Assembly (NCBI GenBank): GCA_965223155.1
Contig: CBDCVR010000013.1
Coordinates: 800,001 to 864,000 of the forward strand
Length of the DNA: 64,000 nt
From: Candidatus Multivoradales bacterium
GTDB lineage: Bacteria > Acidobacteriota > Thermoanaerobaculia > Multivoradales > JAHEKO01
Direction: 5' to 3'
Shown: positions 1 to 18,499 of the stretch, piece by piece
How positions within the stretch are numbered: position 1 is the first letter of the stretch
How the letters are laid out: every line of letters starts with the position of its first letter
The notes under the pieces: model-generated
The model's input: the letters and a program-made list of their open reading frames with translations, nothing else
Told to the model about the DNA's origin: nothing
The model's database searches: none
Translations under genes and position numbers: made by a program

Positions 1-459
1 GTCGAGCGCATTCTGGACGAGACCGGACTCGATCCGGAGCGCCTGGATCTCGAGCTCACCGAGCGCGGTGTCACGCTGGACGACGCCCGCTCGGCGGCAC
101 ACCTCCAACAGCTCCGGACCCGGGGCGTCCGGATCGCTATCGACGATTTCGGTACCGGCAATTCAGCGCTGTCCTACCTCAAGGCGTTTCCGCTCGACCT
201 CTTGAAGATCGACCGGTCGTTCGTGCGCGGCATCCAGTCCGGTGGCACCGACGCAGCGATCATCTCGGCGGTGATCGCAATGGCGCACCGGTTGGGCTTC
301 GAGGTGGTGGCCGAGGGGCTCGAATCCGAGGCCCAGCTTCGGTTTCTGGCCGCCGAGCGCTGTGACTACGTCCAGGGTTTTCTCTTCGCCAAACCGCTGC
401 CGGCTGAGGAATTCAGTAGGATGTGCCGGAGCGGCGGTTTCTCGACCCTCCGCCGCTAG
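1..459 (+). CDS. EAL-domain c-di-GMP phosphodiesterase, C-terminal part (5' end outside the window)
   Basis: Frame 1 is open from base 1: LELTE...IAIDDFGTGNSALSYLKAFPLDLLKIDRSF...VVAEGLE...QGFLFAKP, the canonical EAL motifs. Confidence 0.93.
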   Translation, partial: VERILDETGLDPERLDLELTERGVTLDDARSAAHLQQLRTRGVRIAIDDFGTGNSALSYLKAFPLDLLKIDRSFVRGIQSGGTDAAIISAVIAMAHRLGFEVVAEGLESEAQLRFLAAERCDYVQGFLFAKPLPAEEFSRMCRSGGFSTLRR

Positions 460-473
460 CCTCTAGGAACCTC

Positions 474-3400: not shown

Positions 3401-3785
3401 CAACGCCACTCCCAAGACCGCCGAAGACCTGGCCGAGCGGATCCGCGCCGGCATCGCCGGCCATCGTTTCGAGCTGGGTCCCGAGACCTCGGTCGAGCTG
3501 AGCTGCTCGATCGGCTTCGCCTCGTATCCCTTTCTGCGAAAGTTCCCGCGTGCGTTCACCTGGGAACAGGTGGTTGCCGTCGCCGACCGCGGTTTGTACT
3601 TCGCCAAGAAAAGCTGCCGCAATGCTTGGGCCGGAATCTCCGAGAACCACCGGGTGGACACCGTCCACCCGTCCTCGCTGCTCCACCAGATTAACCACGA
3701 GTTGGAGCAGTTGGTCCAGCTCGAAGTCGTCGAGCTCAGGACCTCGATCGAAGACGAGGCGGAGCTCGTCTGGGGCTGGACCTAG
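474..3785 (+). CDS. Membrane-anchored diguanylate cyclase with periplasmic beta-propeller (Reg_prop repeats) and Y_Y_Y sensor
   Basis: Signal peptide; many 'D..G.LWVGT.GGL' repeats; YTNLDPGRYTFRVKASN; PPPWRAWWAY TM segment; DLDGFKQVNDTYGH...RDAD-TVIRW-GGDEF (intact A-site and RxxD I-site). ATG 474 preferred over the track start at 423. Confidence 0.92.
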   Translation: MPRHLRWSRWAATLVLLALATAASAQERRIPFDHVGLQEGLPHSTVNAIVQDDLGFVWLGTQDGLVHWDGNAFTAYRHEPGNQGSLSNNWVWTILKDSTGRLWIGTNEGGLNLWEPATRSFVQYRNDEMDPASLSNNRVRALLEDRNGRIWVGTESGLNVFDPIAGRFDRYFHDPSNPDSLSHNQIRTIFQDRRGSIWVGTNGGGLDRLDDAGGVFTHFRHDPDDPASLSRDRVRVVFEDRSDQLWVGTYEGGLNRFDPATGAFTRFAEEPGRSGSLLGNRVTSIHQDSNGVLWVGTFSGLNEWLPERQAFTRYAHNPADPASLSDNRVMTIFQDRGGVLWVGTQGGISKWNAVTGSFSGFRHDPAAPDRSLISNTVNALAEDAQGRLWIGTYEGLDVLDRGTGTVTHHLRDDAVPGRLRDDRVMSLHVDRGGTLWVGTFEGGLHRRRADGRFRNYRHDPDDPASLSRDAVTAILEDSQGVVWAGTYGGGLNRVKADGSGFIRYRNDPDNVTSIGNDKVLALLEASDGALWVGTDGGGLSRLDRRQGTFTRYRSNSDAESSLGADTIFSLAESSDGTLWIGTQGGGLSRWLKQDRIANRVRFKTYTTSDGLPNDVVYAILEDESGSLWLSTNDGLARFDPATETFRKYGTTHGLLSTEFNFGAFLKTRDGEMLFGSDQGVNFFQPSRIHANDHAPPVVLTSFLKFNQEERLEIPTPELRELYLTHKDYVVSFEFAALDFSAPERNSYAYMLEGFDTGWNEVGNLNRATYTNLDPGRYTFRVKASNNDDLWNENGVALAINVAPPPWRAWWAYLAYLAAALAVLLAVVRRQSAIRVREIQQRRELEDQVALRTTELAERNQELESAIDRLEHASVTDALTGLRNRRYLVNNIDADLALVDRHHENLKRRPKVAAEGPPPDFLFLLFDLDGFKQVNDTYGHAAGDLILLQVTEILRGACRDADTVIRWGGDEFLIVARNATPKTAEDLAERIRAGIAGHRFELGPETSVELSCSIGFASYPFLRKFPRAFTWEQVVAVADRGLYFAKKSCRNAWAGISENHRVDTVHPSSLLHQINHELEQLVQLEVVELRTSIEDEAELVWGWT

Positions 3786-4708
3786 CCCCCGGTCTCTTTA
3801 CCGCCAATCCGGTCGACAATGGCTCCGACCGCCTCGGGCAGCGCGTCGAGACTGTCGGGCAGCACGAGCTCCACGGCGTCAACGGCGGGGGCGGCTCCAG
3901 TGAAGAGATCGAAGGCCGCCGCCCTGAGCCATTGGGCAAAGAGACTCGATGCCGTGAGGTTGGCGAGAATCCGGGTCACGGCCTCACTTGGCGCCAGCGG
4001 CCGGACCGTGGGCGCCGACACGTCGGGCCTGCGTCGCGGAAAGACGATCGCGCCGAGCGGCGCGCTGGCCGGTTCGAGCGGCTGCTGGTCCGGCCCCATC
4101 TTGAGCTGGGGAAATCGCGGCAAGACCTTCAGCCCCGGCCCGGCCCCCGCCAGAATCACCTGATCGTCGGCCAACCTCGTGTGCCCCGCAGCTTCGGCAA
4201 CACGCGCGAATGTGGACTTCCCCGCCCCGCTCTCGCCGGCTGCGGCGACCACCCGATCCCCGATCTGAAAGGCCGAGGCGTGGAGGCTCCAGCGCCCACA
4301 GGCGGCCAGGGCCAGGGTCAGACCGGGGCCGAGCGCGGCGTACCGAGCCTGATCCTCGGACCGGGGGCCCTCGATCGTGAGATCCACCGCAGGAGCCGAG
4401 AAGCGGCATCGGAGCCACTGCCGACCCTCGAGCTCCAGCCTGGCCCCCTCGTCGCCTGTGTGGATCAGGTACCGGGTCCTCCGGCCGGCCAGCCAGTTAC
4501 GCCCCGCGAGGGTCTCCAGCATGGACCGGTGCTTCCCCGCCGGAGCGTCCGGCTTCGAAAACTCGACGCCGAACAGCGTGAACGGCGTCAGCTCGCGCAC
4601 CGTGCCTGTGGCGCTCACGGTCAGTCCGGCCAGGCCGTAGTGGCGCCAGCGCGGCTCTCCGTCTTCCTGAAACCAGAGACGTACCGTCTCTCCGTCCGGC
4701 ACCTTCAT
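3782..4708 (-). CDS. HPr-kinase-like P-loop kinase (lasso/RiPP-associated kinase), cluster 1
   Basis: LHASA...GESGAGKST...LADD motifs; ATG at 4708 overlaps the cyclase stop (TGATG). Confidence 0.8.
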   Translation of the reverse strand: MKVPDGETVRLWFQEDGEPRWRHYGLAGLTVSATGTVRELTPFTLFGVEFSKPDAPAGKHRSMLETLAGRNWLAGRRTRYLIHTGDEGARLELEGRQWLRCRFSAPAVDLTIEGPRSEDQARYAALGPGLTLALAACGRWSLHASAFQIGDRVVAAAGESGAGKSTFARVAEAAGHTRLADDQVILAGAGPGLKVLPRFPQLKMGPDQQPLEPASAPLGAIVFPRRRPDVSAPTVRPLAPSEAVTRILANLTASSLFAQWLRAAAFDLFTGAAPAVDAVELVLPDSLDALPEAVGAIVDRIGGKETGG

Positions 4709-6378
4709 CAAGCCAGCTCCCAACCGTGACGGCCGCGCCAGAGCTCGAAGGACGCGCATCGCCAGAGCAGCGCCTTTTCCGCCTCCGACGAACGGGGCCC
4801 AACGGCCTCGACGGCTTCAGGGCGGACGAACTCCGGCCAAACCGCCCGCCTCCGGCCCAGCAGCTCGGCAATCGGTCCGGACTCGCGTTCGAAGACTCCC
4901 CGATCGAAGAGCGGCGAAAGATTGGCGGTGGTCTGGTTCCGGACCACCGCGTCCGGCAAGCGGCTGGTCATCGCCCGGCGCATCAGATCCTTGGCGCAAC
5001 CTGGCCTGGCGATCAGAAAGCTGGGGAGCGCCAGCAGGAGCTCGACGAGATCCGGGTCGAGATACGGCGAGACTACACGGACCCCGGCGTGGGACGCGTG
5101 CACCGCCTCGATCGGAAGTCCCCTACGCTCGAGATCCAGATAGGGCCGCACCAAGCGCGCGCGCGCGCCGGTGTCCTGCCCATCCTCCGGTGCCCGAGCC
5201 GATCCCGAGCTCGCGGCCACCCCCGGGCGGAGCCAAGCCCGGCTCGCGCGCGATGCAACCCGAGCCATGCGCCCGGCCGGACTTCCGATGCGGCCGATGG
5301 CTCCCAGCGCCTGACGCGGCCCCCGGCCACGGGCGATCTGGAGGATCGCGGCGGCGGCGCGGGCGAAGTGTCCGTGGCGCACGAGGTCCCGTACCAGGAG
5401 CTGCTGTACGCCGCGGTAGAGAGCGTCGGCCGGTCCCCCGTTCCAAAGCACGCCGACGCCCGCTTCGGCCGCCCTCCGGTACAGGCGCTGCTTGAGGCCC
5501 CGATAGGGATTCTCCTCGGGATGGCCCGGTTCGAGGCCGTAGGCGTCGGGGTCGGCAAGGGGCCAGCAGTCATCTCCGGAGACGCGCACGGCCGTGAGCC
5601 TAAGGCTCTCCACGACCGCGTCGATACGCTCCCTTTCGTCGCACGTCCTCAGCTCGTCGAAGATCCAGGAAGCAGCCACCGGCCGGCGCCCGGCCTGCTC
5701 AGCGTACTCGGCGGGCGCGGCAGGTTCGAACCGGGCCGCGGCGGCCGCCGCCAGGGCTCCTGAGTCGATTCCCCCGCTCAGCATCAGGCCAAGCTCACCG
5801 TCCGGCGGCGTCCAGCGCGCCGCCGCCGACTCGAGGGCCTTCCAGAGGCGCTCGGCGGCCTCTTCCGGCGAAAGGTCGCTCAGCGCGGCCGAGTCGGGCG
5901 GCTGGCCGCACGTCTCCAGCCGGCCGGGCTCGTCCGCCAGACCGCTCGGATCCGGCCGTGGGCCAGGCGGCGATCCGACGGGAAGCCGCACCCGGCAGCC
6001 GGCCGGCACCTCGAAGACTCCTCGGAAATGCGTCCGGCCCACCGTGGGGCTCTCGAGCGCGAAGAAACGAGCGAGCTGACCTCGATCCAAACCCGGCCGC
6101 ACCGGCAGGGTCGCCAGCAAGTCACTCAGGACCGACGACGAATAGAGCCGGCCCCCGGCCCGCGCGTAGTAGAGCCCCTCGGCACCGCTAGCGCCTCGCG
6201 CCAGGGTAACTCCTTCACCGTCCGGGTCCAGCCGAGTCCCGGTTTCGGAAAGAGCGCCGGGTTCCCGAAGCCGCCGCCGCCCGGGATGCGGCTCGGAGGC
6301 GGACGTGTCGACCCCGAAGCCATTCCTGGCCTGCATCCGGGTACCGGTGGCGAGGTCGAACACCGCCGAGCGCGACAT
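4708..6378 (-). CDS. Asparagine-synthetase-like lasso cyclase (macrolactam synthetase), cluster 1
   Basis: PP-loop LSGGIDS; NGGPADALY acidic motif; SPYLDPDLVELLLALP...KDLMRRAM; no N-terminal catalytic Cys; directly downstream of a lasso-type precursor. Confidence 0.82.
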   Translation of the reverse strand: MSRSAVFDLATGTRMQARNGFGVDTSASEPHPGRRRLREPGALSETGTRLDPDGEGVTLARGASGAEGLYYARAGGRLYSSSVLSDLLATLPVRPGLDRGQLARFFALESPTVGRTHFRGVFEVPAGCRVRLPVGSPPGPRPDPSGLADEPGRLETCGQPPDSAALSDLSPEEAAERLWKALESAAARWTPPDGELGLMLSGGIDSGALAAAAAARFEPAAPAEYAEQAGRRPVAASWIFDELRTCDERERIDAVVESLRLTAVRVSGDDCWPLADPDAYGLEPGHPEENPYRGLKQRLYRRAAEAGVGVLWNGGPADALYRGVQQLLVRDLVRHGHFARAAAAILQIARGRGPRQALGAIGRIGSPAGRMARVASRASRAWLRPGVAASSGSARAPEDGQDTGARARLVRPYLDLERRGLPIEAVHASHAGVRVVSPYLDPDLVELLLALPSFLIARPGCAKDLMRRAMTSRLPDAVVRNQTTANLSPLFDRGVFERESGPIAELLGRRRAVWPEFVRPEAVEAVGPRSSEAEKALLWRCASFELWRGRHGWELA

Positions 6379-6437
6379 CGTGCCCGAGCCTACCTTGCGC
6401 CTAGGTCCGACCGGACCTGTCGCGACCTGCCAGCCCG

Positions 6438-6644
6438 CTAGCCCTGGAACGGAGGGTTGAAGGCAAACGGATTGCCCGAGTCACCGACGCCGGGAGAGCC
6501 GCCCAAGGTCAGGCTGGCCAGCGAGCCGTAGCGCACGAGAGTCGGCTGGCGATAGGGCCTGCGGCCTTCGAGCGGCCGAAGTTCCGCCCCAGTCCGGTGA
6601 GCCGATTGCCGGCGCACCCGCGAACGCTCGCTGGCCTTGTCCAT
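6438..6644 (-). CDS. Lasso-type RiPP precursor A1 (68 aa); predicted core GGSPGVGDSGNPFAFNPPFQG
   Basis: MDKASERS...RRPYRQPTLVRYGSLASLTL|GGSPGVGDSG...: YxxPxL motif, leader Gly, Thr(-2), Gly1, Asp8. ATG at 6644 overlaps the stop of the 2754-aa gene; it is the 3' end of track ORF 6438..7142. Confidence 0.88.
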   Translation of the reverse strand: MDKASERSRVRRQSAHRTGAELRPLEGRRPYRQPTLVRYGSLASLTLGGSPGVGDSGNPFAFNPPFQG

Positions 6645-9600
6645 CAGGGCACGATTGTCATCGTCGGGTCGCCGAGAAGCGTCCATCCGAGAATAACATC
6701 CAAGCGACCCGGATCGCTCTCGGCCAGATCGCGCTTGGCCTCGACCACCGCGCCGCCAAGGCGAGCACCGGGGCTCGCCAGGCGGTCGAACACGCGACGT
6801 CCCAAACGCTGCTCGGAGAGGGCCTCGGTCAAGGTCGCGGCACCCAAAACCGCCGCCGCGCCCGTATCGGCCTCCAGCAGAAGCCGGTTGCCCAAGGTCT
6901 CGTAGGTCGGCAGCACGTGGTAGGTGTTCCAGCAGCCCCACTGGGTCACGACGGTCGGCTTGCCGCGGTTCTCGAGCCGATCGACGTCCGACGAGCGGAA
7001 GAGGCCGCTGAAGCTCCAGACGGTCAGGCCGGAGTGCCCAAAGTAGCTGGTGATTGCCGGGCCCTGGCCGATCTCGCGCACGAGCGCCTCGCGGGCATCT
7101 GTAAGCGGCATCTCGTCCAGATAGACCCGCTCGAGGGACCAATCGGAACCCAGGAGCGCCCCCATGGCGTCGCTCTTCTGTCCGAACGAGAACCCAGTCG
7201 GCGCGTCCCGCTTGTCCGCGGCTAGAACCGCGGTCAGCTCGCCGCCGTCGTAGAGCAGCGTCTTGTCGATCACCGCGGCCAGCTCGTCGAGAGTCCGCAC
7301 CGGCCAGCGGCCCACGGCCACCTCGGGGATGAGGTCCCCGTCCACGTCGCCGTACAGGGGATCCACCGGCGCGTAGCGGACGATCGCGTCGGTCTGGAGA
7401 TACGGAGTCGGGACGAAGCTCATCGAGCCGACACCCAGATGATCGAAGTAGTCGTAGGTGTCGCCGCCCACCAGCAGCAGATACCGTGTCCCGAGGCTCT
7501 TGTACGCGTCGCGGACGTAGCTTCGAATCGCCTCCGGATCCACAATGCCATTACTGTAGGCAGCGTAGACGTCGTCCACGTCGACGGTCCGGACCGCCAA
7601 GCCTTCACCGCGGCGACGGCTCTCCCAGCGGCCCAGGCCGTCCAGGAAGTCGGCGTGCGCGATCACGAGCACGTCGGCGGGCGCGTCGCCGAGATCGCTG
7701 GCGGCGCGAGCGGCCTCGATCGCCGGAACGCGGATCGAGCCGGCTCCGACCGTCCAGTACTCGGCATCGGCGGCACCCAGTCCCGAGAACGCAGCAGCGT
7801 AGCCTCCCAAACCGTCGGCCACCGTCGCCGCCTCGAGACGCGCCAGCGTGCCGGCGGTTCGTCCGTAGGCCACGACGTCGGTCGAAGCAAAGCCGCGCAC
7901 CAGGAAACTCCGGCCGCCGGACGCGAAGCTCAAAGCGTCGGCCCGGGCCACGAAGTCTCTCGGGTACCTGACCGTCAGGTGGTCGTAGTTAACAAGATCG
8001 AACTGGGCGCCCGTGTCATGCGGCAATAGCAGCCTCATCGTGTTGCCGGCCGGCGCCAGGAGGGCGTCGCTCAAGACCGCCGAGATCTCGGGTTGGTAGA
8101 GCCCGTCGAACCATTCCTCGGCAACCAGGCCGCCGTTGACCTCGACGACCAGATGGTGGTCGGGTGCCTGCGGCAGGTTCGTGACGCCGTAGGCCGACAC
8201 CTCGAGGGCCACGTCGGCGGCTCCGGGCAGCCAGTTGTCGAGGTCAAACGTCACCGACGTCTCGACAGGCTTCGTAGTCGCGAGCAGGCGCCGGTCGTAC
8301 CACGGATCACCGGTCGGCGAGGCGAAGTTGTACTGGCGCTCGACCTCGACCTTGTGGGTCTCGAGGTAGTAGGGCTCAGCGGCGCCCGCGCCGGAGTACG
8401 GCTCGATCTCCGCCCGCAGCGCCCGGTCCCGATTCACGCTCAGTCGATAGACGTTGGTCCGGGTGTAGAGGCTGTCGTCGACCGGCTCGCCCACGAACTC
8501 GAGAGACGAGCCGGGACCGAACGGACCCTCTCCGGACACCCAGAAGGGGACCGGCTCACCGCCGCTGGCCAGGCTCAGCCAGTCTCCTCGAATTCCCTGG
8601 AGGCGCACTCCCGCGGCTGCCAGATCTTCGTAGGTGACCCGGTAGATACCCGCCTCGGAAACCTTGAAAGTCGCCAGCTCGTCACCACGGCCCGGCCGGC
8701 CCGAATTCGAGCCACTCGAGCCTCCGTTCGAGCGCAACGCCCTGCCGCCGAACTCGATCGCGCCTCCGAGATCGGCCGAACCGGCCTCGGGCAGCACGCC
8801 GGCGTTCCGCCGCGCGGCCTTGCCCGCTTTCCGGCGCGCCTTGGCGTCCCGGATCTTGGCCCAGGCAACAGGTTGCGCGGAAACCACCTCCGACCCGGCG
8901 GCTTCATCCGCGTAGAACGGACCGTGGTGTCGAATGACGCCGTTGATATCCACGTCCTCCAGAAGGAAGGTATCGCCTGCGACTCCGGCGGCCGAGAACT
9001 CGTACACCTGCGGCTCGAGCGAGTCCACGACGTGGGACGGGATGAGCTCGTCGTTCAAGCGGCGCAAGCCGTCATCTTCGAGCGCGTAAAGATTGAAGCC
9101 GAGATTCCCGACCTCGGTCGAGGTCATCCAGCGGAAGTCCACCGATCCGCGTCCGTGGGCTTCGAAGTAGGCCAGAGTCACCGGCGTCGTGGTCACGCCC
9201 CCGTTCCAGAAGCCGAAGTCCTGATCGGTGACGTTCGAAGAGACCAGAGTCACCGGCTGGACCCCGCCGGTCCCGGCTTGGGTGGTCTGGACGAAGCCGT
9301 CGACCAAGGTGCCCTCGCTGTCGGCGTACACCAGATAGTCGCCCGGCGGCAGGTTGTCGAAGCTGTAGGTACCGTCGATCGCGGTCACGGTGGTCGCGAC
9401 CAGGGGATCGTCCGGATCGATGACTCCGTCGCCGTCCAGATCCTGATAGAGGTACACGGTTACCGAGGGCACCACCGGCTCGAGTCCGGTTCCCGCGAAG
9501 GAACCGTTGGCATCGCCGTCCTCGAACACGGTTCCGGAGATCGAGAGCGCGCCGGTCGGAAGGACGAAGCCGAAGTCCGCGGTGAAGTTGGACGAGTTCA

Positions 9601-12600
9601 AGGTCAGGGCGTACGGGTTGGTCTGATTGTTGTCGTCCTGGCCGGGGTTCGGACCCAGAACGGTAGCGGTCAGGCCAGCAGTCACGCCGTATTCATCGGT
9701 GAGCCGCGCGATGTAGTCGCCGGAGGGAATGCCCTCGCAGTAGTACTCGCCGGCCTCATCCGTCGTCTCGGTCCGGATCAGGTTGTCGGTACCGTCGATA
9801 TCCAGGATGCCGTTGCCGTTGACATCGTGCCAGCATTCCAGTGTCACGCCCGAGATCGGCGGCTCGCCAACCTGATAGACGCCGTCCAGATTGGTATCGA
9901 ACCACACCAGATTGCCAATCGAGCCCAGCCCGGCCTCGGGGCCGTAGCCAAAGTCGGCGGTTGCCGTAGAGCCCCCAGCGACCGAGACCGAGGTTTCCTC
10001 GTCGCAAGTCGAGCAGGTCCCGGACTCGTCGGGATCGCCCGTCTGCTGCAAGCCCACCAGAACGCTGTCGACGTCGGTGACCTCTACGGTGTAGGTGCCG
10101 TCGGGCACGCCGGTGAACTCGTAGTCGCCGTTTGCATCGGTGGTCGTCGTGGCGATGATGTTGCCCGAGCCATCGACCAGGTTGACGGTCACGCCGACGA
10201 TGCCGCCCTCGCTTCCACCTTCGACGCCGTCGTTGTCGCCATCGTTCCAGATCGTGCCCTCGATCGTATTGACGACGCCCCCGTCGTAGCCGAAGTCCAG
10301 CGTCGGCACCACGTCGCCATCGGCCAGGGTCAGTAGGTAGGTATCGTCACCGCCGTTGTTGGTCGGCGTGGTCGTGTAGCCGAGCGCGGCAATGCCGGCC
10401 GAGTCCACGGTCACGATGTAGTCGCCGGGCAGGAGGCCCGTGGCCAGCCAGGTCCCATCCGGGTTGGTGGTCACCGTGCAACCGGTCGGACACGACGGAC
10501 CCTGGATCAAGATGTCGATGCCGCCGATACCGACCTCGCCTTCGTCCTGGATGCCATCGCCGTCGGCGTCGTACCAGACGGTGTCGCCGATGGTGGCCGT
10601 GCCCGCCGTCGGCACGTAGCCGAAGTCGGCGTCGTTGTAGTCCTCGCCGTCCGAAAGCGCAATCGCTGTCGTCGTGTCGCCGCCGGTCGAGGAGGTCAGG
10701 CCGGTGGGCGCGGTCGGAACGTCCACGTAGTAGATGCCCGAGTCCAGCCCGCCAAAATCGTACTGACCGTTGGCGTTGGTGGTCGTCGAGCCCACGAAGA
10801 CGTCATCGGCGGTGCCGACGATGCCGTCCGGACCGGCGTCATAAAGATCCACCTGCACCCCGGAGATACCGCTCTCGTCGGGGCCCTGGACGCCGTCGCC
10901 ATTGGTGTCCAGAAAGACCGTGTCGCCGATCGAGGCCGTGCCGGTGTCCTGGACATAGCCGAAGTCCACGTCGTCAATGTCGGAGCCGGCCAGGGTCACG
11001 TCCAGCGCGTCGAGTCCGCTGGTCAAGGTGTAGCCGTCGAGCACGTTGTCGGTATCGGTCACCACCACCGTGTAGTCACCGTCGGGAAGATCCGGAAAGC
11101 TGTAGTCCCCGTTCGAATCGGTGACAGTGGTCGCGATGACCGCGCCGGTGTCGTCCAGGAGCTCGAGGGTGACGCCGCCGATTCCGGCTTCGGTGCCGTC
11201 CTGGATCCCGTCGGTGTCGGTATCGTTGAACACGGTTCCGAAAACGTCGGCAAGAGACGTGTCCTGGTAGCCGTACTCGATTCCGGTCACGCTCTCGCCC
11301 GCGTTCAGGGTGACCGCAGTCGTGGTCGTACCGTCGCAGACCGTGCAGGTTCCAGACTCGTCGGGGTCGCCGGTCTGGGAGCCGCTGGGCGCCGCGCCCA
11401 CCGTCACCACGTAGTTGTCGGGAGCCAGGTCACCGAAGGAGTAGCTGCCATCAGCCGCGGTAGTGGTCTGGGCCACAAAGTTGGGGCTCGACGGATCGCA
11501 GGGACTCGCGGGATCCGTACAGAGATAGATCGGCACGCCCTCGATTCCCGCCTCTTCCGGGTCGTGGACGCCATCGCCGTCGGCGTCGCTCCACACGGTT
11601 CCGGACAGAGTGTCCGGCTCGTTGTAGCCGAAGCTGGGCGTGCCGCCGTCGGACGGAGCGTTGAGGACGTCTCCGCCCGAGACCACGACGTCCTCGACGC
11701 CTCCGGTCGCGGTGGTCTCGGTAAAGCCGTCGAGCTCGCTCGCCGTATCCGTGACCTGAAGCTGGTAGACGCCGTCGGTCACGCCGGTGAACGACACTTC
11801 ACCGTTCTCATCCGTGATCGCGGTCGCGATCGTGGTGTCGTCGGCAGCGTTGGCCCCACCGCAAATGCCGTCGGCGCCGCAGTCGACCAGATCCACGGTG
11901 ACACCCGGGATCATCTCTTCGCCGGGATCCAGCACGCCGTCTCCATCCGCGTCATACCAGACCGCGTCGCTGACCTCGTAGCTCGTTGACGTATCGAAGC
12001 CAAAGTCGACGTCACTGATGATGTCGTTCTCCAGTACCGAGATCGGATCGCTCTGAGTAGGACTGGTCTCGCAGCCGGCTACCGGGTCGGGACTGCAAAA
12101 CGCCACCAGCTCGGGGTCGGTCGTGTCTACGACGACGATGTACTCACCGGGCGGCACGTCGGTCAGAAGATAGGAGCCGTCCGGTCCGGTGACCGCGGTG
12201 ATCGGCTGCCCGCCGGAGTCAAGGACCGGCGTGCCGTCGGGATTCAAGAGCTGCACGGTTACACCGGCGATGCCCACCTCTCCGGGATCCTGAATCCCAT
12301 CCTGATCGGCGTCGCTCCACACGGTCCCTTCGATGACCGCGGTACCTGAATCCGGGACGTACCCGAAGTCTGCCGTTTCCGTTTCTCCGGCCGCCAGCGT
12401 CAGGGTGCCCGAGTTGCCCGCCACGTTGCCCGGCGATTCTTCCAAGCCATCCAGGTCGCCACCGGTCAGTTCGGCCGGTTCGACCTGGGTCTGATAGTCG
12501 CCCGCCGACAGATCCGGGAAGCTGTAGTCGCCGGCGGCGTCGGTCACCGCGGTGGCAATGGCGGTCGAGGCGTCGCAGACGGGCTCGGAAGCCTCACAGA

Positions 12601-14908
12601 GATAGACCGTAACGCCATCGATCCCGGGCTCGCCGATGTCATGGACACCGTCACCGTCGGTATCGAGCCAGACGGTCCCTTCGATCGCCGAACACGTGCT
12701 GCCGCCATTGCCGATCGTGTCCAGATTGTTGCCAGGATTCGGATCGTTGTTGTCGGCCGTGACATACGCCACGTTGTCAAATTCGCAAGCCCGCGCCACC
12801 GGATTGCCGGCGACGTCCCCGTCCGAGTCACTGTTGTTGGACGTATCCTGATCCGCCTCATCGGCGCTCACGGTGACCACATTGTCGAACGGTCCCGAGG
12901 CATCGATCGTCGCAATCACAGTGATCACTTCGCTAGCGCCGGACGCAAGGCTGGGAATCGTACAGGGCAAGGCACCGCAACTCGCGCTCGAGACGCTGGT
13001 GATCGTGAGATTGCTCGCGACGTCGGTGACCAGCACGTTCGTGGCCAGAGAGGGACCGTTGTTGGTCACCACCATCGAGTAGGTCACGGTCTGGCCGGAA
13101 ACGTAGGGGCCGGCGGTGATCAGGGTCTTGGTAACCGCGACGTCGGCCCCGACCGGATTGACGGCGTCGTCCGAGATCGGGTCAATCCCGGTCGCCGAGG
13201 CCTCGGCCGTGTTGGTCAGCTCGGTGATCGCCGGGTCCAGCGGATCGTCTACCAGAACCTGAAACGTCACGGTCAGAGTCTCGCCTGGAGCCAGCGTGAA
13301 ACCGTCTCCCGACTCGACCAGGCTCGGCGGTGTGCCGTCCACCAGGTCCATGTTCGTCCCACCCGGTACGTTGTCTTTGGTCGTCGTGCCCGAAGCACCG
13401 TGGGCTTCGATGACGATGTTGTCGAAGTAGACGTCTTCCGAAGAGCTGGTCGTACCCGACCGCAAGCGGATCACGGTGCTCGCATTCCCGGCCGTGATCG
13501 ACACCGACTCCGTCCCCGACTGGTTGTCGTCCTCCTCTGGACACACCTGGGTCCCGTCACGGCTGAACACCGTCGAGAACGTCCCTCCTCCATTGGTCGA
13601 GACCTGGACGTCCAGAAAATCGCTCGACTCCCAGCCGCTGCTGGTGTCGTTGCACTCCCAGGTGAAAGACAACGTGGCGCTGGTGTAGGCGCTCAGGTCT
13701 GCCGACCTGGAAGCCGTGCCTGACGAGCCACCGTTCATGAACACCGCATTGGACAGACCTCCGGGAGAGGTCGTCTCGATGCTCGAGCTATTGAACGTCC
13801 AGTTGCCCGACCAGCCGGTTCCTCCAGTGCCGTCGCCGCTCGAGAAGTCGTCGCTGATGGTGGCCGAGCTGTCCACCGGACCCGTCGCCGCCGTGCTCTG
13901 CGCCACGTAGGTGACCCCGGTCGGCAGCGTGTCGGTCACCACCACGTCGTTGACGTTACCGGGACCGCTGTTGGTCACCTCGATCGTGTAGGTGATCGTC
14001 TCCCCAGGCTGAACCGAACCACTTGGACTCGCCGTCTTGACGATCGACAGGGCCGGTGGGACGTCCTCGACGCAAAGCGCGAACCCGGACAGACGAACCG
14101 CGTGTCCGTTGCTCTCCCCCGTACCGCTCTCGTTGGTCGCATCGTCCGGACCGTTGTTGTATGTGAAGTTGAGCGTGTCGAACGCCGCACCGCTGGACAC
14201 GGTCAACGTTCCGGCCGCATCCCCTGGAGAGAGGTTCCCATTGACGCCGGGCGCCACAATCGCCGTCGCCGTCTGACCCGAAACGGTCATGTTGCTGCCG
14301 CCGCTCAAGGTCAGGGGAACATTGCTGCCCCCGTCCGAGGCCGAAAAGGTCAGCTGATCCTGAAACGACTCTTCGGGCTCCGGCGCCTGAGCCCCGAACC
14401 CGACGTCATCGATGTCACCAAGCGAGAAGTCGTTCAGGATCACCGACTTCGAGAACGTGAAATCGAACCCGATGGTGTCGCTCACCGAGTTGACGCTGGC
14501 CATCTTCACAGTCAGGAAGCCCGAACCGAACGCCCCGTTGGTCTCGGTCTTCGTCGTCGTCGGATTGTCGCAGCCATTCGATAGCGCCGCCGGACACGAG
14601 AAGTTGTCGTCGTAGTTCATCCCGTCCGGATCCTGCAGCGTCACCGTCACGTCCAGCGTGTTCGGGTTGCCGTAGGCGTCCGTGTAGGCGACGGTGTAGA
14701 TCTCCGACGCCCCAGTCGTGTTGTTAGCGATCGTCCACTCGTTGCCCGTACCCGGAGACGTTGACCAGTCGAAGGTCGCCGCCGCCGTCCCCGACGGGCA
14801 GCTCTGGGCTACCGCTTGGGCCGGAGCCAGCAACCAGCCGAGAGCAAGAGCCGGCGCCAGGCGCAGCGCCAGGCCCGGCCATCGCCTCATCGACCAAAGG
14901 TCCGTCAT
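6644..14908 (-). CDS. Giant secreted protein (2754 aa): DUF11 domains, about 10 SdrD-B-like Ca-binding repeats, Ig-like 'PVTL' domain, C-terminal C25 (gingipain/PorU-like) cysteine peptidase
   Basis: Signal peptide ...AQAVAQ; TYTIEVTNSGP DUF11 motifs; repeats 'IGDTVWxDxDGDG...DFGY'; FKVSEAGIYRVTYEDL; YLLLVGGDTYDY; DGDLIPEVAVGRWPV; His in YFGHSG and Cys in QWGCWN; WTLLGDP terminus. Confidence 0.88.
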   Translation of the reverse strand: MTDLWSMRRWPGLALRLAPALALGWLLAPAQAVAQSCPSGTAAATFDWSTSPGTGNEWTIANNTTGASEIYTVAYTDAYGNPNTLDVTVTLQDPDGMNYDDNFSCPAALSNGCDNPTTTKTETNGAFGSGFLTVKMASVNSVSDTIGFDFTFSKSVILNDFSLGDIDDVGFGAQAPEPEESFQDQLTFSASDGGSNVPLTLSGGSNMTVSGQTATAIVAPGVNGNLSPGDAAGTLTVSSGAAFDTLNFTYNNGPDDATNESGTGESNGHAVRLSGFALCVEDVPPALSIVKTASPSGSVQPGETITYTIEVTNSGPGNVNDVVVTDTLPTGVTYVAQSTAATGPVDSSATISDDFSSGDGTGGTGWSGNWTFNSSSIETTSPGGLSNAVFMNGGSSGTASRSADLSAYTSATLSFTWECNDTSSGWESSDFLDVQVSTNGGGTFSTVFSRDGTQVCPEEDDNQSGTESVSITAGNASTVIRLRSGTTSSSEDVYFDNIVIEAHGASGTTTKDNVPGGTNMDLVDGTPPSLVESGDGFTLAPGETLTVTFQVLVDDPLDPAITELTNTAEASATGIDPISDDAVNPVGADVAVTKTLITAGPYVSGQTVTYSMVVTNNGPSLATNVLVTDVASNLTITSVSSASCGALPCTIPSLASGASEVITVIATIDASGPFDNVVTVSADEADQDTSNNSDSDGDVAGNPVARACEFDNVAYVTADNNDPNPGNNLDTIGNGGSTCSAIEGTVWLDTDGDGVHDIGEPGIDGVTVYLCEASEPVCDASTAIATAVTDAAGDYSFPDLSAGDYQTQVEPAELTGGDLDGLEESPGNVAGNSGTLTLAAGETETADFGYVPDSGTAVIEGTVWSDADQDGIQDPGEVGIAGVTVQLLNPDGTPVLDSGGQPITAVTGPDGSYLLTDVPPGEYIVVVDTTDPELVAFCSPDPVAGCETSPTQSDPISVLENDIISDVDFGFDTSTSYEVSDAVWYDADGDGVLDPGEEMIPGVTVDLVDCGADGICGGANAADDTTIATAITDENGEVSFTGVTDGVYQLQVTDTASELDGFTETTATGGVEDVVVSGGDVLNAPSDGGTPSFGYNEPDTLSGTVWSDADGDGVHDPEEAGIEGVPIYLCTDPASPCDPSSPNFVAQTTTAADGSYSFGDLAPDNYVVTVGAAPSGSQTGDPDESGTCTVCDGTTTTAVTLNAGESVTGIEYGYQDTSLADVFGTVFNDTDTDGIQDGTEAGIGGVTLELLDDTGAVIATTVTDSNGDYSFPDLPDGDYTVVVTDTDNVLDGYTLTSGLDALDVTLAGSDIDDVDFGYVQDTGTASIGDTVFLDTNGDGVQGPDESGISGVQVDLYDAGPDGIVGTADDVFVGSTTTNANGQYDFGGLDSGIYYVDVPTAPTGLTSSTGGDTTTAIALSDGEDYNDADFGYVPTAGTATIGDTVWYDADGDGIQDEGEVGIGGIDILIQGPSCPTGCTVTTNPDGTWLATGLLPGDYIVTVDSAGIAALGYTTTPTNNGGDDTYLLTLADGDVVPTLDFGYDGGVVNTIEGTIWNDGDNDGVEGGSEGGIVGVTVNLVDGSGNIIATTTTDANGDYEFTGVPDGTYTVEVTDVDSVLVGLQQTGDPDESGTCSTCDEETSVSVAGGSTATADFGYGPEAGLGSIGNLVWFDTNLDGVYQVGEPPISGVTLECWHDVNGNGILDIDGTDNLIRTETTDEAGEYYCEGIPSGDYIARLTDEYGVTAGLTATVLGPNPGQDDNNQTNPYALTLNSSNFTADFGFVLPTGALSISGTVFEDGDANGSFAGTGLEPVVPSVTVYLYQDLDGDGVIDPDDPLVATTVTAIDGTYSFDNLPPGDYLVYADSEGTLVDGFVQTTQAGTGGVQPVTLVSSNVTDQDFGFWNGGVTTTPVTLAYFEAHGRGSVDFRWMTSTEVGNLGFNLYALEDDGLRRLNDELIPSHVVDSLEPQVYEFSAAGVAGDTFLLEDVDINGVIRHHGPFYADEAAGSEVVSAQPVAWAKIRDAKARRKAGKAARRNAGVLPEAGSADLGGAIEFGGRALRSNGGSSGSNSGRPGRGDELATFKVSEAGIYRVTYEDLAAAGVRLQGIRGDWLSLASGGEPVPFWVSGEGPFGPGSSLEFVGEPVDDSLYTRTNVYRLSVNRDRALRAEIEPYSGAGAAEPYYLETHKVEVERQYNFASPTGDPWYDRRLLATTKPVETSVTFDLDNWLPGAADVALEVSAYGVTNLPQAPDHHLVVEVNGGLVAEEWFDGLYQPEISAVLSDALLAPAGNTMRLLLPHDTGAQFDLVNYDHLTVRYPRDFVARADALSFASGGRSFLVRGFASTDVVAYGRTAGTLARLEAATVADGLGGYAAAFSGLGAADAEYWTVGAGSIRVPAIEAARAASDLGDAPADVLVIAHADFLDGLGRWESRRRGEGLAVRTVDVDDVYAAYSNGIVDPEAIRSYVRDAYKSLGTRYLLLVGGDTYDYFDHLGVGSMSFVPTPYLQTDAIVRYAPVDPLYGDVDGDLIPEVAVGRWPVRTLDELAAVIDKTLLYDGGELTAVLAADKRDAPTGFSFGQKSDAMGALLGSDWSLERVYLDEMPLTDAREALVREIGQGPAITSYFGHSGLTVWSFSGLFRSSDVDRLENRGKPTVVTQWGCWNTYHVLPTYETLGNRLLLEADTGAAAVLGAATLTEALSEQRLGRRVFDRLASPGARLGGAVVEAKRDLAESDPGRLDVILGWTLLGDPTMTIVP
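13152..13957. repeat. ~800-bp near-identical direct repeat, copy A (copy B at 15164..15969)
   Basis: Constant offset of 2012 nt; long identical stretches, e.g. 13381 'tcgtcgtgcccgaagcaccg' = 15393. Confidence 0.9.
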
Positions 14909-16944
14909 TGGATAGTCGCCGTCACAGTGAGAACGACGGTCGCTCCGGCACTAAGATTCGGGATCACACAAGGAAGGCTGGCGCAGCCTCCGCCCGACAC
15001 CGAGTCGATCGTGAGGTTGGTCGGAGCGTCATAAACGGTCACGTTGGTCGCGTCCGCCGGGCCGGCGTTACTGACAATCAACTCGTAGGTAATCGTCTGG
15101 CTTGAGGAATAGGGCCCGGCCGTAACGAGGTTCTTGACGACGCTGACGTCGGCATCCGTCGCCACCGGATTGACGGCATCGTCGGAGATCGGATCGATCC
15201 CGGTCGCCGAGGCCTCGGCCGTGTTGGTCAGCTCGGTGATCGCCGGGTCCAGCGGATCGTCTACCAGGACCTGAAACGTCACGGTCAGAGTCTCGCCGGG
15301 AGCCAGCGCGAAATCGTCTCCCGACTCGACCAGGCTCGGCGGTGTGCCGTCCACCAGGTCCGCGTTCGTCCCACCCGGTACGTTGTCCTTGGTCGTCGTG
15401 CCCGAAGCACCGTGGGCTTCGATGACGATGTTGTCGAAGTAGACGTCTTCCGAAGAGCTGGTCGTACCCGACCGCAAGCGGATCACGGTGCTCGCATTCC
15501 CGGCCGAGATCGACACCGACTCCGTCCCCGACTGGTTGTCGTCCTCCTCTGGACACACCTGGGTCCCGTCACGGCTGAACACCGTCGAGAACGTCCCTCC
15601 TCCATTGGTCGAGACCTGGACGTCCAGAAAATCGCTCGACTCCCAGCCGCTGCTGGTGTCGTTGCACTCCCAGGTGAAAGACAACGTGGCGCTCGTGTAG
15701 GCGCTCAGGTCTGCCGACCTGGAAGCCGTGCCTGACGAGCCACCGTTCATGAACACCGCATTGGACAGACCTCCGGGAGAGGTCGTCTCGATGCTCGAGC
15801 TATTGAACGTCCAGTTGCCCGACCAGCCGGTTCCTCCAGTGCCGTCGCCGCTCGAGAAGTCGTCGCTGATGGTGGCCGAGCTGTCCACCGGACCCGTCGC
15901 CACCGTGCTCTGCGCCACGTAGGTGACCCCGGTCGGCAGCGTGTCGGTCACCACTACGTCGTTGACGTTGCCGGGGCCGCTGTTGATTACCTCGATCGTG
16001 TACGTGATCGTCTCACCAGGCTGAACCAAACCGCTCGGACCCGCCGTCTTGACGATCGATAGGGCCGGTGGGGTGTCCTGGACGCAAAGCACCTGAAACC
16101 CGGAGATGCGGACCGCGTGCCCGTTACTCTCCCCCGTGCCGCTCGAGTCCGCCGTGTCGTCCGGACCATTCGAATACTCGAAGCTGAACGTGTCGAAAAG
16201 GCCCGTCGATGACGCCGTCAGTGTGCCCGCGGCGTCGTCGGGAGTCAGGTTGCCATTGACCCCCGCCACCACGATCGCCGTCGCCGTCTGTCCCGAGAGC
16301 GATATGTTCGAGCCGCCCGAAAGGGTCAAAGGAACGTTCGCACCACCGGCCGAGGCCGTCAGTGTTACCTGATCCTGAAAGGACTCCTCTGGCTCTGGCG
16401 CCTGCGCGCCGACGCCCACGTCGTCGATGTCTCCGATCGTGAAGTCGCTCATCGACACCAGCTTCGAGAAGGAGAAGTCGAAACCTACCGTGTCCGTCAC
16501 CGAGTTCACACTCGCCATGCCCACGGTCAAAAAGCCCGAACCGTACGACCCGTTTGTCTGGGTGTCAAAGCCTGGGTCGCAGCCGTTCGACAAGGCCGCC
16601 GGACACGCGAAGTTGGTGTCGAAATTCATCGCATCCGGATCCTGGAGCGCCACCGTGACGTCCAGCGTGTTCGGATTGCCGTAGGCGTCGGTGTAGCCGA
16701 TCGAATAGACCTGCGAGTTGCCGTCCGTATCGTTACTCGACAGCCACTCGTTGCCCGTACCAGGGGTACTCGACCAGTCGAACGTCGCCGCCGCCGTGCC
16801 CGACGGGCAGCCTTGGGCTACGACATCTGAGCCCGGGACCAGTCCTAGTACGGCCCCAAGCAGGAGGCTCGAGACCACACGCCGCCGCCGGCCCGAGGAG
16901 CCGGGCGGATTCTTGGGAGGTACACCGGGGGAAAGTTCGTTCAT
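14905..16944 (-). CDS. Secreted DUF11-domain protein, paralog of the N-terminal ~700 aa of the giant protein
   Basis: Signal peptide then QGCPSGTAAATFDWSS..., colinear with the giant protein; its stop overlaps the giant's ATG (ATGA); ATG 16944 preferred. Confidence 0.82.
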   Translation of the reverse strand: MNELSPGVPPKNPPGSSGRRRRVVSSLLLGAVLGLVPGSDVVAQGCPSGTAAATFDWSSTPGTGNEWLSSNDTDGNSQVYSIGYTDAYGNPNTLDVTVALQDPDAMNFDTNFACPAALSNGCDPGFDTQTNGSYGSGFLTVGMASVNSVTDTVGFDFSFSKLVSMSDFTIGDIDDVGVGAQAPEPEESFQDQVTLTASAGGANVPLTLSGGSNISLSGQTATAIVVAGVNGNLTPDDAAGTLTASSTGLFDTFSFEYSNGPDDTADSSGTGESNGHAVRISGFQVLCVQDTPPALSIVKTAGPSGLVQPGETITYTIEVINSGPGNVNDVVVTDTLPTGVTYVAQSTVATGPVDSSATISDDFSSGDGTGGTGWSGNWTFNSSSIETTSPGGLSNAVFMNGGSSGTASRSADLSAYTSATLSFTWECNDTSSGWESSDFLDVQVSTNGGGTFSTVFSRDGTQVCPEEDDNQSGTESVSISAGNASTVIRLRSGTTSSSEDVYFDNIVIEAHGASGTTTKDNVPGGTNADLVDGTPPSLVESGDDFALAPGETLTVTFQVLVDDPLDPAITELTNTAEASATGIDPISDDAVNPVATDADVSVVKNLVTAGPYSSSQTITYELIVSNAGPADATNVTVYDAPTNLTIDSVSGGGCASLPCVIPNLSAGATVVLTVTATIQ
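15164..15969. repeat. ~800-bp near-identical direct repeat, copy B
   Basis: Matches 13152..13957; both encode the SATISDDFSSG...ISDDAVNPV segment. Confidence 0.9.
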
Positions 16945-17280
16945 CGGAGATCGCCTGGGTCGGCTTATGGTCGGGCCGACCGAACTATACCTGTAATCAT
17001 GCACCTCAAGTGCCACTCGGGCCCGCAACGTCAAGCTCTTCTATTGCAAGAGTTGCTGCGCAACCCGGGTCGGCCCCGCTACGCCGGCCGGCACTCAGCG
17101 CCCGTCACCTGCCAAAATTCGTCACCTACCGGCGGCCGCCCGGGCTCGCCGCACCGGACATGCTTCCCGATCCGCTCGTCTCCGGACCCGGGTAACTTTC
17201 CCTACGGAAGCCGACCCGAGCGCCTGGGATGCTACCGGCCTCTGGCGCCGGTCCGCGGCTCGTGGGCGGCTAGTGGGCTG

Positions 17281-18477: not shown

Positions 18478-18499
18478 CAGCTCTCTGAGATCGGGCCGC

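Follow-up and report, generated by a model that had tools for sequence, protein, structure and literature searches.

The segment at 3782-6644 reads as a minimal kinase-type class II lasso cassette (precursor A, cyclase C and HPr-kinase-like K) that closes an adhesin operon on its 3′ side, with the RRE and the protease supplied in trans; we put the probability of this reading at about 0.6. The cassette is co-oriented with the adhesin gene and probably co-transcribed with it. All five minus-strand ORFs listed for this locus in the initial annotation were found in the window (the whole stretch of DNA analysed, 64 kb). Together with the convergent neighbor, which lies outside the cassette and is conserved, the features are as follows:

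423..3785, plus strand: Reg_prop/Y_Y_Y sensor - GGDEF diguanylate cyclase, convergent (Pfam; counterpart in related genome L001 63% identical)
3782..4708, minus strand: HPr-kinase-like peptide kinase (kinase 1), 308 aa from ATG at 4708 (translation, motif, fold)
4708..6378, minus strand: Asn-synthetase-like lasso macrolactam cyclase (cyclase 1), 556 aa (Pfam Asn_synthase; NCBIfam NF033535; PP-loop)
6438..6644, minus strand: lasso precursor, 68 aa (translation; lasso_leader_L3; precursor alignment); leader 6504-6644, 21-aa core 6441-6503, stop 6438-6440
6644..14908, minus strand: giant SdrD_B/DUF11 surface protein (adhesin), 2754 aa (Pfam, NCBIfam)
6647-9196, minus strand: C-terminal PorU-like module of the adhesin, approximately residues 1905-2754 (conserved among homologs)
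6656-7669, minus strand: Pfam C25 of the adhesin, residues 2414-2751 (204 bits)
7034-7036, minus strand: candidate catalytic His2625 (alignment to PorU 6za2 and Kgp)
6932-6934, minus strand: candidate catalytic Cys2659 (same alignment)
14905..17034, minus strand: DUF11 protein, alternative ATG start at 16944 (Pfam DUF11 and DUF7507)

Read directly from the DNA, the adhesin/precursor and cyclase/kinase junctions are both TGATG and the DUF11/adhesin junction is ATGA, so each of the three stop/start overlaps claimed previously is present. The ATGA overlap is contingent on the choice of start. The adhesin copy in the protein database, which comes from the window's own contig, has 2748 aa (P0025) and hence starts at Met7, and the DUF11 ORF could begin at TTG 17034 or ATG 16944. 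Overlaps are frequent among same-strand neighbor pairs of the window (9/29, and 6/25 outside the present locus, counted with longest-ORF starts); therefore, three overlapping junctions out of four give the locus the look of an operon but are no oddity.

Precursor, cyclase and kinase

Against NCBIfam lasso_leader_L3, the precursor scores 22.6 bits, and those of a second cassette in the window and of L001, a Thermoanaerobaculia MAG, score 23.1 and 19.4 bits, so that all three exceed the curated cut-off of 19. The leader motif is canonical, with Y-x-x-P-x-L followed by T at position -2, and the core has Gly1, Ser3 and Asp8. When the three precursors were aligned, Y31, P34, L36, G40, T46, L47, G48, G49 and D55 were invariant, which includes Thr(-2), Gly1 and Asp8 in 3/3. 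Within the first 10 core codons, the window and L001 differ at six, and all six changes are synonymous (0 non-synonymous) although the cyclases are merely 37% identical. The core is thus under purifying selection, and the precursor is not merely a chance ORF. Ser3 is common to both cores, neither contains Lys, and the C-terminal residue is Gly in the window and Leu in L001.

For cyclase 1, the Pfam model Asn_synthase gives 76.3 bits, well over its cut-off of 21. The lasso cyclase model NF033535 is the top NCBIfam match for the cyclases of both cassettes and of L001 (3/3), its score for cyclase 1 being 84.7 bits, far under the cut-off of 525. The PP-loop SGGxDS is invariant in all four aligned members of the subfamily. 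A GATase-like N-terminal domain was not detected in cyclase 1 but is present in its three relatives, an observation that counts against our preferred reading.

Kinase 1 has a longest ORF extending to 4759, and its database copy is of 308 aa (P0145). Its matches to the NCBIfam models HprK_rel_A/B are weak (E 0.002-0.005; HprK_rel_A, E 0.0023). Nonetheless, the catalytic motif is complete (H143, G158, G161, G163, K164, S165, D181, D182), and these residues are invariant or nearly so across 55 aligned relatives. The AF2 model (pLDDT 92.2) matched PEPCK and HprK/P in Foldseek, pointing to a fold of the PEPCK/HprK type. The N-terminal domain of the model is all-beta, and neither the model nor Foldseek revealed an RRE-like domain in the kinase.

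Scored with the lasso and HprK-related models, both enzymes fall far short of the curated cut-offs, as might be expected if an Asn-synthetase-like protein and a P-loop protein modified something else and the small ORF were incidental. We consider this extremely unlikely, given that three precursors score above the curated threshold for the leader, Thr(-2), Gly1 and Asp8 are invariant, the second cassette has a lasso-type PqqD and the peptide is under purifying selection.

The kinase can be compared with that of the bsf cluster of Bradymonas sediminis (BsfA/K/B1/B2/C/D/N), as described in PMC10368454. The mutationally tested BsfK motif, H...GxxGxGKS...DD, is shared by kinase 1 with the same spacing; BsfK phosphorylates Ser3, is sped up by B1, and Ser occupies core position 3 in both systems. 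The YxxPxL-type leader is also common to both, whereas position -2 is Ile in bsf and Thr here. Moreover, bsf is likewise flanked by a large repeat (FG-GAP) protein, deemed uninvolved by its authors, but includes B1 and B2 together with a nucleotidyltransferase and an ABC exporter (PMC10368454). Cassette 1 lacks all four. In paeninodin-type systems, an HPr-kinase homolog works on the linear precursor, as we propose here. However, as described in PMC8498205, those kinases target a C-terminal Ser, while the window and L001 cores end in Gly and Leu, and those clusters have B1, B2 and D.

Helper genes and the second cassette

Cassette 1 contains no RRE or B2 gene and, as the initial annotation stated, lies directly 3′ of the adhesin gene; the C25 of this adhesin is apparently intact. 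Apart from the PqqD gene of cassette 2, no RRE or B2 was found in the 64 kb, neither in the 41 ORFs taken as genes nor in the ORFs of eight gaps. Since no exporter, B2 or nucleotidyltransferase was seen near cassette 1, the proposed pathway needs at least two unlinked helpers, and none was found, which counts against our preferred reading.

A B-less layout has precedents, contrary to the earlier statement that no characterized system is arranged in this way. In Stanieria (cyanosphaera PCC 7437), a precursor, a macrolactam synthetase and a homolog of the PsmK kinase are clustered with the B genes absent (Zyubko 2019, PMC6993621). The same source demonstrated lasso formation without B1/B2 and proposed host proteases for leader removal. 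The likeness of cassette 1 to psm (pseudomycoidin)/Stanieria is one of gene content, and the phyla differ (Cyanobacteria/Firmicutes versus Acidobacteriota). Unlike the systems described there, cassette 1 retains the RRE-binding motif in its leader, has an RRE available in cassette 2 and follows the gene of a giant adhesin (PMC6993621).

Cassette 2 (50437-53880) is a distant relative located 46 kb away:

50437..51480, minus strand: HPr-kinase-like kinase 2, 347 aa (Pfam Hpr_kinase_C; HprK_rel_A/B)
51537..53288, minus strand: lasso cyclase 2, 583 aa (Pfam Asn_synthase 129 bits; NF033535 143 bits)
53298..53513, minus strand: lasso precursor 2, 71 aa as longest ORF (lasso_leader_L3 23.1 bits, cut-off 19)
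53551..53880, minus strand: PqqD-family RRE (lasso B1), 109 aa (Pfam PqqD 66.9 bits; NCBIfam lasso_PqqD models)
55106..59059, minus strand: SdrD_B giant protein without C25, 1317 aa (Pfam SdrD_B, seven stretches)

Cyclase 2 is 28% identical to cyclase 1. Kinase 2 falls short of the Hpr_kinase_C cut-off (25.9 versus 33.3 bits) and matches HprK_rel_A/B at E of about 1e-5. Precursor 2 has internal Met codons as possible starts; in its core, Gly is the first residue and Asp the eighth. Among PDB sequences, the PqqD protein matched TbiB1 (5v1u, E 1e-11) and also TfuB1 (6jx3). No B2 was found in cassette 2 and no C25 near it. Upstream, on the same strand, stands the SdrD_B giant gene. This second, independent placement behind such a gene hints that the association of cassette and adhesin is perhaps no accident, and it counts against our preferred reading.

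Because the PqqD gene adjoins a precursor of the same leader family, its product is the obvious candidate for a trans-acting leader-binding protein of cassette 1, judging from sequence. We infer a route in which the 68-aa precursor would be synthesized in the cytoplasm and its leader motif bound by an RRE encoded elsewhere, possibly this one. The kinase would phosphorylate the linear precursor, most plausibly on Ser3 if it resembles BsfK, and an unlinked protease would cut off the leader. The cyclase would then close an 8-residue ring between Gly1 and Asp8, leaving a 13-residue tail with Phe plugs.

Linkage in a related genome

The linkage is kept in L001, the one related genome read, where the order is adhesin-C25, precursor, cyclase, kinase and convergent GGDEF gene, and where no RRE was found within 10 kb on both sides. 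Thus, two or more lineages of Thermoanaerobaculia have inherited the position behind the adhesin. Its survival across 37% cyclase identity and the stop/start overlap in the window count against our preferred reading. No such overlap joins adhesin and precursor in L001, where an internal GTG has a strong Shine-Dalgarno-like run, GGAGG, in front of it. Synteny also reaches past the cassette, the GGDEF gene being 63% and the upstream gene 66% identical; therefore, conservation of the linkage is weak evidence in either direction.

The cassette enzymes are 34-37% identical between window and L001 and the flanking genes 54-66%. Such fast divergence, the missing helper genes and the undetected GATase-like domain would fit a cassette in decay, left without a product after the loss of its RRE, B2 and exporter. 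This is improbable, as no ORF is broken in either of the two lineages, the PP-loop and kinase motif are preserved, the leader recognition motif is kept and the core ring shows synonymous changes only.

The adhesin and its C25 module

The adhesin comprises 10 SdrD_B stretches, DUF11 and Peptidase_C25 (Pfam). Its N-terminus, read by eye, resembles a signal peptide, and the protein appears to be Sec-exported. The DUF11 gene upstream, to judge by its 82% protein identity over 646 aa and 87% DNA identity over 1730 nt, is a truncated tandem paralog of the N-terminal ~670 aa of the adhesin. The C25 module shares Pfam C25 with PorU and the gingipains (204 bits), and the GH(S/G)G His and the Cys of PorU 6za2 and Kgp align with its positions. 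Both residues, H2625 and C2659, are invariant in 20/20 aligned homologs, so the module is apparently intact. However, the NCBIfam T9SS_sortase match (residues 2147-2752, 127.6) is far below its cut-off of 420, the window showed no genes for type IX secretion, and in this Acidobacteriota host the module is not a free-standing enzyme but the C-terminal end of a giant protein with many repeats.

Could the C25 act on the peptide? It is encoded next to the cassette, belongs to the Cys/His proteases and has its candidate catalytic residues intact, and B2 is absent from the 64 kb; it might therefore replace the B2 leader peptidase or, as a sortase-like transpeptidase, ligate the peptide to the adhesin. 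We find this highly unlikely. Lasso maturation requires ATP, and the cyclase and kinase are ATP enzymes. With a signal-peptide-like N-terminus on the adhesin, the C25 would fold outside the cytoplasm and meet the peptide only after export. Cassette 2 manages without B2 or a nearby C25, and given its PqqD gene the C25 need not stand in for the missing RRE. Lasso synthesis without B genes and relying on host proteases has also been documented (PMC6993621). The earlier interpretation thus holds as regards a lasso-type cassette directly 3′ of a C25 adhesin and its linkage in L001, but not as regards novelty of layout or a nucleophile ligated by C25. The latter is chemically unlikely: with the N-terminus inside the ring and Lys-free cores, the mature peptide would have no free amine.

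Alternatively, in a post-export version of the earlier interpretation, the mature peptide may be a dedicated partner of the adhesin. It might inhibit or cap the active site of the C25, or be co-secreted as a signal for the neighboring Reg_prop-GGDEF sensor, which would tune adhesion. The TGATG junction, the gene order in L001, the strictly kept ring sequence beside diverging enzymes, the intact His/Cys pair, the SdrD_B giant gene adjoining cassette 2 and the conserved c-di-GMP genes nearby all favor it. Nevertheless, we regard it as unlikely: no exporter is encoded at the cassette, the adhesin of cassette 2 lacks C25, and the overlap is not conserved in L001, where GGAGG precedes the internal GTG and synteny of unrelated flanking genes would also fit plain vertical inheritance. 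Furthermore, the C25 module family is much broader than the cassette.

The last 705 aa of the adhesin have matches (E<=0.001) in at least 175 proteins, which are 1514-4820 aa long, and PF01364 is found in 120/120 of these homologs among the matches listed. Their source names include Thermoanaerobaculia, Acidobacteriota, Deltaproteobacteria, Chloroflexota and Ardenticatenia, and their N-terminal parts differ. The cassette, by contrast, is rare: in the same protein database the cyclase subfamily numbers three and the kinase has four representatives at E<=1e-30, itself included. This rarity argument is soft, since P0030, 99.9% identical to the L001 adhesin, is present, yet the search brought up no cyclase resembling that of L001, although the latter was part of the query profile; either one or more real cassettes are missing from the database or the assembly of P0030 has none. 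In our preferred reading of a minimal cassette served in trans, none of the present findings shows the peptide acting jointly with the C25 end of the adhesin. By its distribution among homologs, the C25-bearing module is a widespread, not lasso-specific part of giant proteins in several phyla, and it most likely serves their own processing or anchoring rather than lasso maturation.

The lasso cassette and the gene block it belongs to

Translation recovers five consecutive minus-strand open reading frames at 3782-17034, as the initial annotation had described:

14905-17034 (-), DUF11 protein, 709 aa
6644-14908 (-), giant SdrD_B/DUF11 adhesin, 2754 aa, ending in a PorU-like C25 module
6438-6644 (-), lasso precursor, 68 aa
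4708-6378 (-), cyclase, 556 aa
3782-4708 (-), HPr-kinase-like protein

The last three genes, which we call cassette 1, constitute a kinase-type lasso cassette in Acidobacteriota that lacks B genes and comes last in a putative giant-adhesin operon. The lasso annotation itself is sound. The precursor scores 22.6 bits against the NCBIfam model lasso_leader_L3, above the curated cut-off of 19, and combines the YxxPxL-type leader motif and Thr at position -2 (Y-x-x-P-x-L ... T-x-G) with a 21-residue core that has Gly1, Ser3 and, within the required 7-9 range for Asp or Glu, Asp8. T46, G48 and D55 are invariant in all three precursors compared, namely those of the window, of a related locus in a Thermoanaerobaculia MAG (L001) and of a second lasso gene set in the window (cassette 2). 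The alignment also shows conservation of Y, P, L, G and T in the leader. Moreover, the first 10 core codons of the window and L001 carry six differences, all of them synonymous. Judged by these comparisons, the peptide is clearly under selection.

The cyclase contains a PP-loop and matches Pfam Asn_synthase with 76.3 bits. Among NCBIfam models the lasso isopeptide cyclase scores highest, yet its 84.7 bits fall far below the cut-off of 525, and the sequence matches in PDB include no solved lasso cyclase. A word-indexed search returned two relatives (47% and 43% identity), after which identity drops below 30%. Searching with a four-member profile led to the same result (next match at E 3e-45), suggesting that the cyclase subfamily is tiny. 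In the plasmid collection there were distant matches only (at most 29% identity); one of them lies on a Nostoc plasmid in a canonical cluster that includes a transglutaminase-like leader peptidase (B2) and an ABC transporter, a context that is uninformative here.

The kinase-like protein has no Pfam match, only marginal HprK-related matches in NCBIfam and no match in the plasmid collection. Nevertheless, an exhaustive HMMER search placed it in a large family of proteins of about 300 aa that can be aligned end to end (4381 matches at E<=0.001, 504 at <=1e-10 and 4, itself included, at <=1e-30). Of 55 aligned members, 38 match HprK_rel_A at E<=0.001, whereas the window protein does not. Across the alignment H143, G161, G163, K164 and S165 are invariant, and G158, D181 and D182 nearly so. 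The window protein thus carries the H / GxxGxGKS / DD motif, with spacing equal to that of BsfK, the lasso kinase of Bradymonas sediminis, whose residues H148, G163, G166, G168, K169, S170, D186 and D187 are described in the relevant passages of PMC10368454 as mutated and shown to matter. The AlphaFold2 model (pLDDT 92.2, pTM 0.90) matched PEP carboxykinases and HprK/P; E was about 5e-6 to 1e-5 and TM-scores were modest.

In the same model the N-terminal 110 residues form an all-beta domain. This rules out a leader-binding RRE hidden in the kinase N-terminus, as the domain is not a winged helix, and leaves cassette 1 without the usual leader-recognition domain. A PqqD-like RRE (B1) is likewise absent as a domain from both cassette 1 and L001. 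The only PqqD gene among the ORFs scanned over 64 kb belongs to cassette 2, 46 kb away. No B2 peptidase was matched in the ORFs scanned over 64 kb or in L001.

The stop/start overlaps to which the initial annotation drew attention are present in the DNA, though they are not unusual for this window. Overlaps occur in 9 of 29 same-strand neighbor pairs in the window, and in 6 of 25 pairs outside the block considered here; overlapping genes are ordinary in this DNA. In addition, whether the DUF11 and adhesin genes overlap at ATGA hinges on which start is used: the adhesin entry in the database begins at Met7 (2748 aa). The DUF11 gene encodes a shortened version of the adhesin N-terminus, duplicated in tandem (82% protein identity over 646 aa; 87% DNA identity over 1730 nt). 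The duplicate at 14905-17034 corresponds to 13100-14810 and covers about 670 N-terminal adhesin residues. It could have arisen by recent duplication, by gene conversion or by collapse or expansion in the MAG assembly.

A terminator scan found a terminator-like hairpin at 3772-3789, where convergent genes end. Neither of the two stretches scanned contains sigma-70-like sites; since the sigma-70 pattern is uninformative for the host phylum, this weighs neither for nor against an internal promoter in the C25 gene. The Rfam scan of the whole window at gathering thresholds gave 0 matches, hence no riboswitch ahead of the adhesin genes, and no tRNA genes were found in the window. The G+C content of cassette 1 (0.69-0.72 at 4001-6000, versus 0.63-0.66 in neighboring DNA) might hint at horizontal insertion. 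However, third-position G+C equals that of the neighbors, so that the excess stems from amino-acid composition rather than codon usage, and insertion is unsupported.

Upstream of the adhesin block there are two Cds6_C/NTF2-domain genes at 17281-19696 (-), which additionally encode a YkuD L,D-transpeptidase domain in one case and TPR in the other. Divergent from them, at 19933-21817 (+), lie genes for an ECF sigma factor, a small ORF and a PDZ protein. It is possible that the genes at 17281-21817 represent an envelope-stress regulatory unit for the adhesin operon.

The C25 module of the adhesin

In the adhesin, 10 SdrD_B stretches and DUF11/DUF7507 domains precede a Peptidase_C25 domain at the C-terminus (204 bits). 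When it is aligned to PorU (6za2) and Lys-gingipain, the His of its GHSG motif coincides with that of the enzymes' GHG, and the Cys of its WGCW motif coincides with the cysteine of PorU. All 20 aligned homologues keep both residues (His2625 and Cys2659), and conservation among them begins near residue 1905. With the fold and the candidate catalytic His and Cys in place, the C25 module looks active. It differs from the PorU/T9SS sortase in that a 600-residue match to the 'T9SS sortase' model reaches 127.6 bits, below the curated equivalog cut-off of 420. The window contains no T9SS genes.

The C-terminal module of about 850 aa (6647-9196, residues ~1905-2754) consists of a beta-rich region followed by the PorU-like C25 domain. 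The last 705 adhesin residues match at least 175 proteins of 1514-4820 aa at E<=0.001; among the 120 matches listed, all are homologues of the C25 module with E<1e-145 and carry PF01364. By name, their sources are Thermoanaerobaculia, Acidobacteriota, Deltaproteobacteria, Chloroflexota and Ardenticatenia, while their N-terminal parts vary and include SdrD_B, DUF11, alpha-amylase, FG-GAP/CAP and VWA. The ~850-aa module is therefore common to at least 175 giants with differing N-terminal 'passengers', and the source names of these giants span at least four phyla. The module looks like a general one for export, anchoring or self-processing outside Bacteroidota. Being shared by otherwise different exported giants, it most simply serves those proteins themselves, and it merits separate study.

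Is the C25 module also a partner in lasso maturation? We consider this unlikely on two grounds. First, the adhesin N-terminus, read by eye, resembles a signal peptide (positive charge, then a hydrophobic stretch, then an A-x-A-type site), and C25 should accordingly fold outside the cytoplasm. Second, cassette 2 also lacks B2, yet there is no C25 near it. The proposal that C25 ligates the mature peptide as a nucleophile is improbable for want of an amine, as neither the window core nor the L001 core contains Lys. Complex prediction, run without controls, paired C25 residues 2140-2754 (20 aligned rows) with the precursor (three aligned rows) and gave a score of 0.01 in both runs, which speaks neither for nor against binding.

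Conservation of the linkage and the second cassette

We asked whether the adhesin-cassette linkage is kept in a related genome. A genome scan in which 182 pattern matches were examined confirmed one locus, L001, with the following genes:

gene 1, giant SdrD_B/DUF11 protein of at least 3105 aa with C25 at its end
gene 2, precursor, after the giant protein gene
gene 3, cyclase, 37% identical to the window cyclase
gene 4, kinase-like, 34% identical to the window kinase
gene 5, convergent Reg_prop-GGDEF, 63% identical to its window counterpart
gene 6, EAL/GGDEF, 66% match to the window's first, cut-off ORF

The linkage is thus kept, in the same gene order. Since the wider neighborhood is conserved too, this is the pattern that vertical inheritance gives. 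The stop/start overlap is absent from L001, where 12 nt separate the adhesin stop from an ATG. A GTG preceded by a GGAGGGAGG run lies 54 nt downstream.

A c-di-GMP block is conserved beside the adhesin locus in both genomes (window 1-3785; L001 12399-21262). It comprises an EAL/GGDEF/PAS/REC gene and a Reg_prop-Y_Y_Y-GGDEF sensor, to which L001 adds a GGDEF-GAF-sigma54 activator.

Protein database tables were of little help in extending this comparison. With contigs matched by length, the only one common to the adhesin homologues (120 listed) and the cyclase homologues (67 rows) is the window's own, and two contig pairs with lengths off by one were judged to be chance. The co-occurrence test is, however, unreliable, because one adhesin homologue (P0030, on a 159,590-bp contig) is 99.9% identical to the L001 adhesin and an L001-like cyclase is missing from the table. 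The cassette may be broken or absent in that assembly, or else the protein database is incomplete.

Cassette 2 is the sister of cassette 1 and carries the only RRE within the 64-kb window. It lies at 50437-53880 (-), and its genes are, in order:

RRE, PqqD family (66.9 bits), a relative of TbiB1 and TfuB1, lasso B1 proteins of solved structure
precursor of the same leader family (23.1 bits), with Gly1/Asp8
cyclase, Asn_synthase 129 bits
HPr-kinase-like gene, the fourth member

The enzymes of the two cassettes are distant paralogues (cyclases 28% identical; kinases 34% over 89 aa). The tail of the cassette 2 core lacks bulky residues, and its last residue is Thr; a B2 peptidase and an exporter are both absent from the cassette. 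Upstream of it is an SdrD_B giant gene without C25 (55106-59059).

Between the two, at 53889-55031 (+), a conserved hypothetical multi-pass membrane protein of 380 aa is encoded; its Atlas look-alike clusters, at 0.97, are all unnamed. Its longest ORF and the divergently oriented RRE gene start only 8 bp apart, so that one of these starts probably lies further in. The giant gene at 55106-59059 stands in tandem with another at 59874-63959, with which it has a ~380-aa block in common (84% identical). Together with the adhesin and DUF11 genes, this pair makes up about 29% of the window.

A putative maturation route and possible role of the peptide

Lasso maturation is described as requiring B1 to bind the leader, B2 to cleave it and C for ATP-dependent cyclization. 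HPr-kinase-like enzymes work on the linear precursor; the paeninodin type phosphorylates a C-terminal Ser (PMC8498205), whereas BsfA is phosphorylated at Ser3, a reaction accelerated by B1 (PMC10368454). Neither the window core nor the L001 core ends in Ser, which sets cassette 1 apart from the paeninodin type and would make Ser3 the probable phosphosite. As in the Bsf type, Ser3 is present and conserved in both cores as a candidate phosphoacceptor.

We propose that an RRE encoded in trans, for which the cassette 2 PqqD protein is the nearest candidate, would bind the precursor. The precursor would then be phosphorylated, probably at the conserved Ser3, and trimmed by an unlinked protease. Finally, Gly1 would be cyclized onto Asp8, with Phe residues of the tail acting as plugs. 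There is precedent for lasso formation without B genes: according to PMC6993621, a lasso peptide can be obtained without B1 and B2, host proteases performing the cleavage. The same source had already pointed out a Stanieria cluster of just precursor, cyclase and kinase. Cassette 1 resembles it in gene content, with these three genes and no B genes, and the uniqueness originally claimed for the layout was therefore overstated.

As for the association between C25 and the lasso genes, their adjacency holds and is kept in L001, but a functional link is unproven. A role after export, with the peptide acting as an inhibitor, cap or signal, has a low probability; in its favor are the conserved position of the cassette behind the adhesin, the conserved ring, the similar neighborhood of cassette 2 and the c-di-GMP genes flanking the locus. 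In its fullest form, a phosphorylated lasso peptide would have been recruited into giant-adhesin operons of Thermoanaerobaculia as a dedicated extracellular partner, either binding C25 tightly as its regulator or inhibitor or serving as a matrix signal for the Reg_prop-GGDEF sensor, which we regard as improbable. If true, the two independent cassettes behind SdrD_B giants and the L001 locus would be no accident, RiPP chemistry would be coupled to surface-protein processing and c-di-GMP-controlled adhesion, and the peptide would be the first of its class dedicated to surface-protein biology rather than antagonism. We found no literature combining 'lasso peptide' with 'Peptidase_C25'. Among the matches listed for lasso peptide, adhesin and gene cluster, titles and abstract starts revealed no such system, nor do the passages found in a 2026 review (PMC13352647) mention one.

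We favor the plain reading of cassette 1 as a B-less, kinase-type lasso cassette. If it is right, Acidobacteriota, through Thermoanaerobaculia, join the barely explored lasso cassettes without their own RRE and leader peptidase, and two cassettes with one RRE in a single genome offer a test case for trans-complementation. Genome-mining tools that demand a B gene would miss such clusters, which bear on how lasso cyclases get their substrate.
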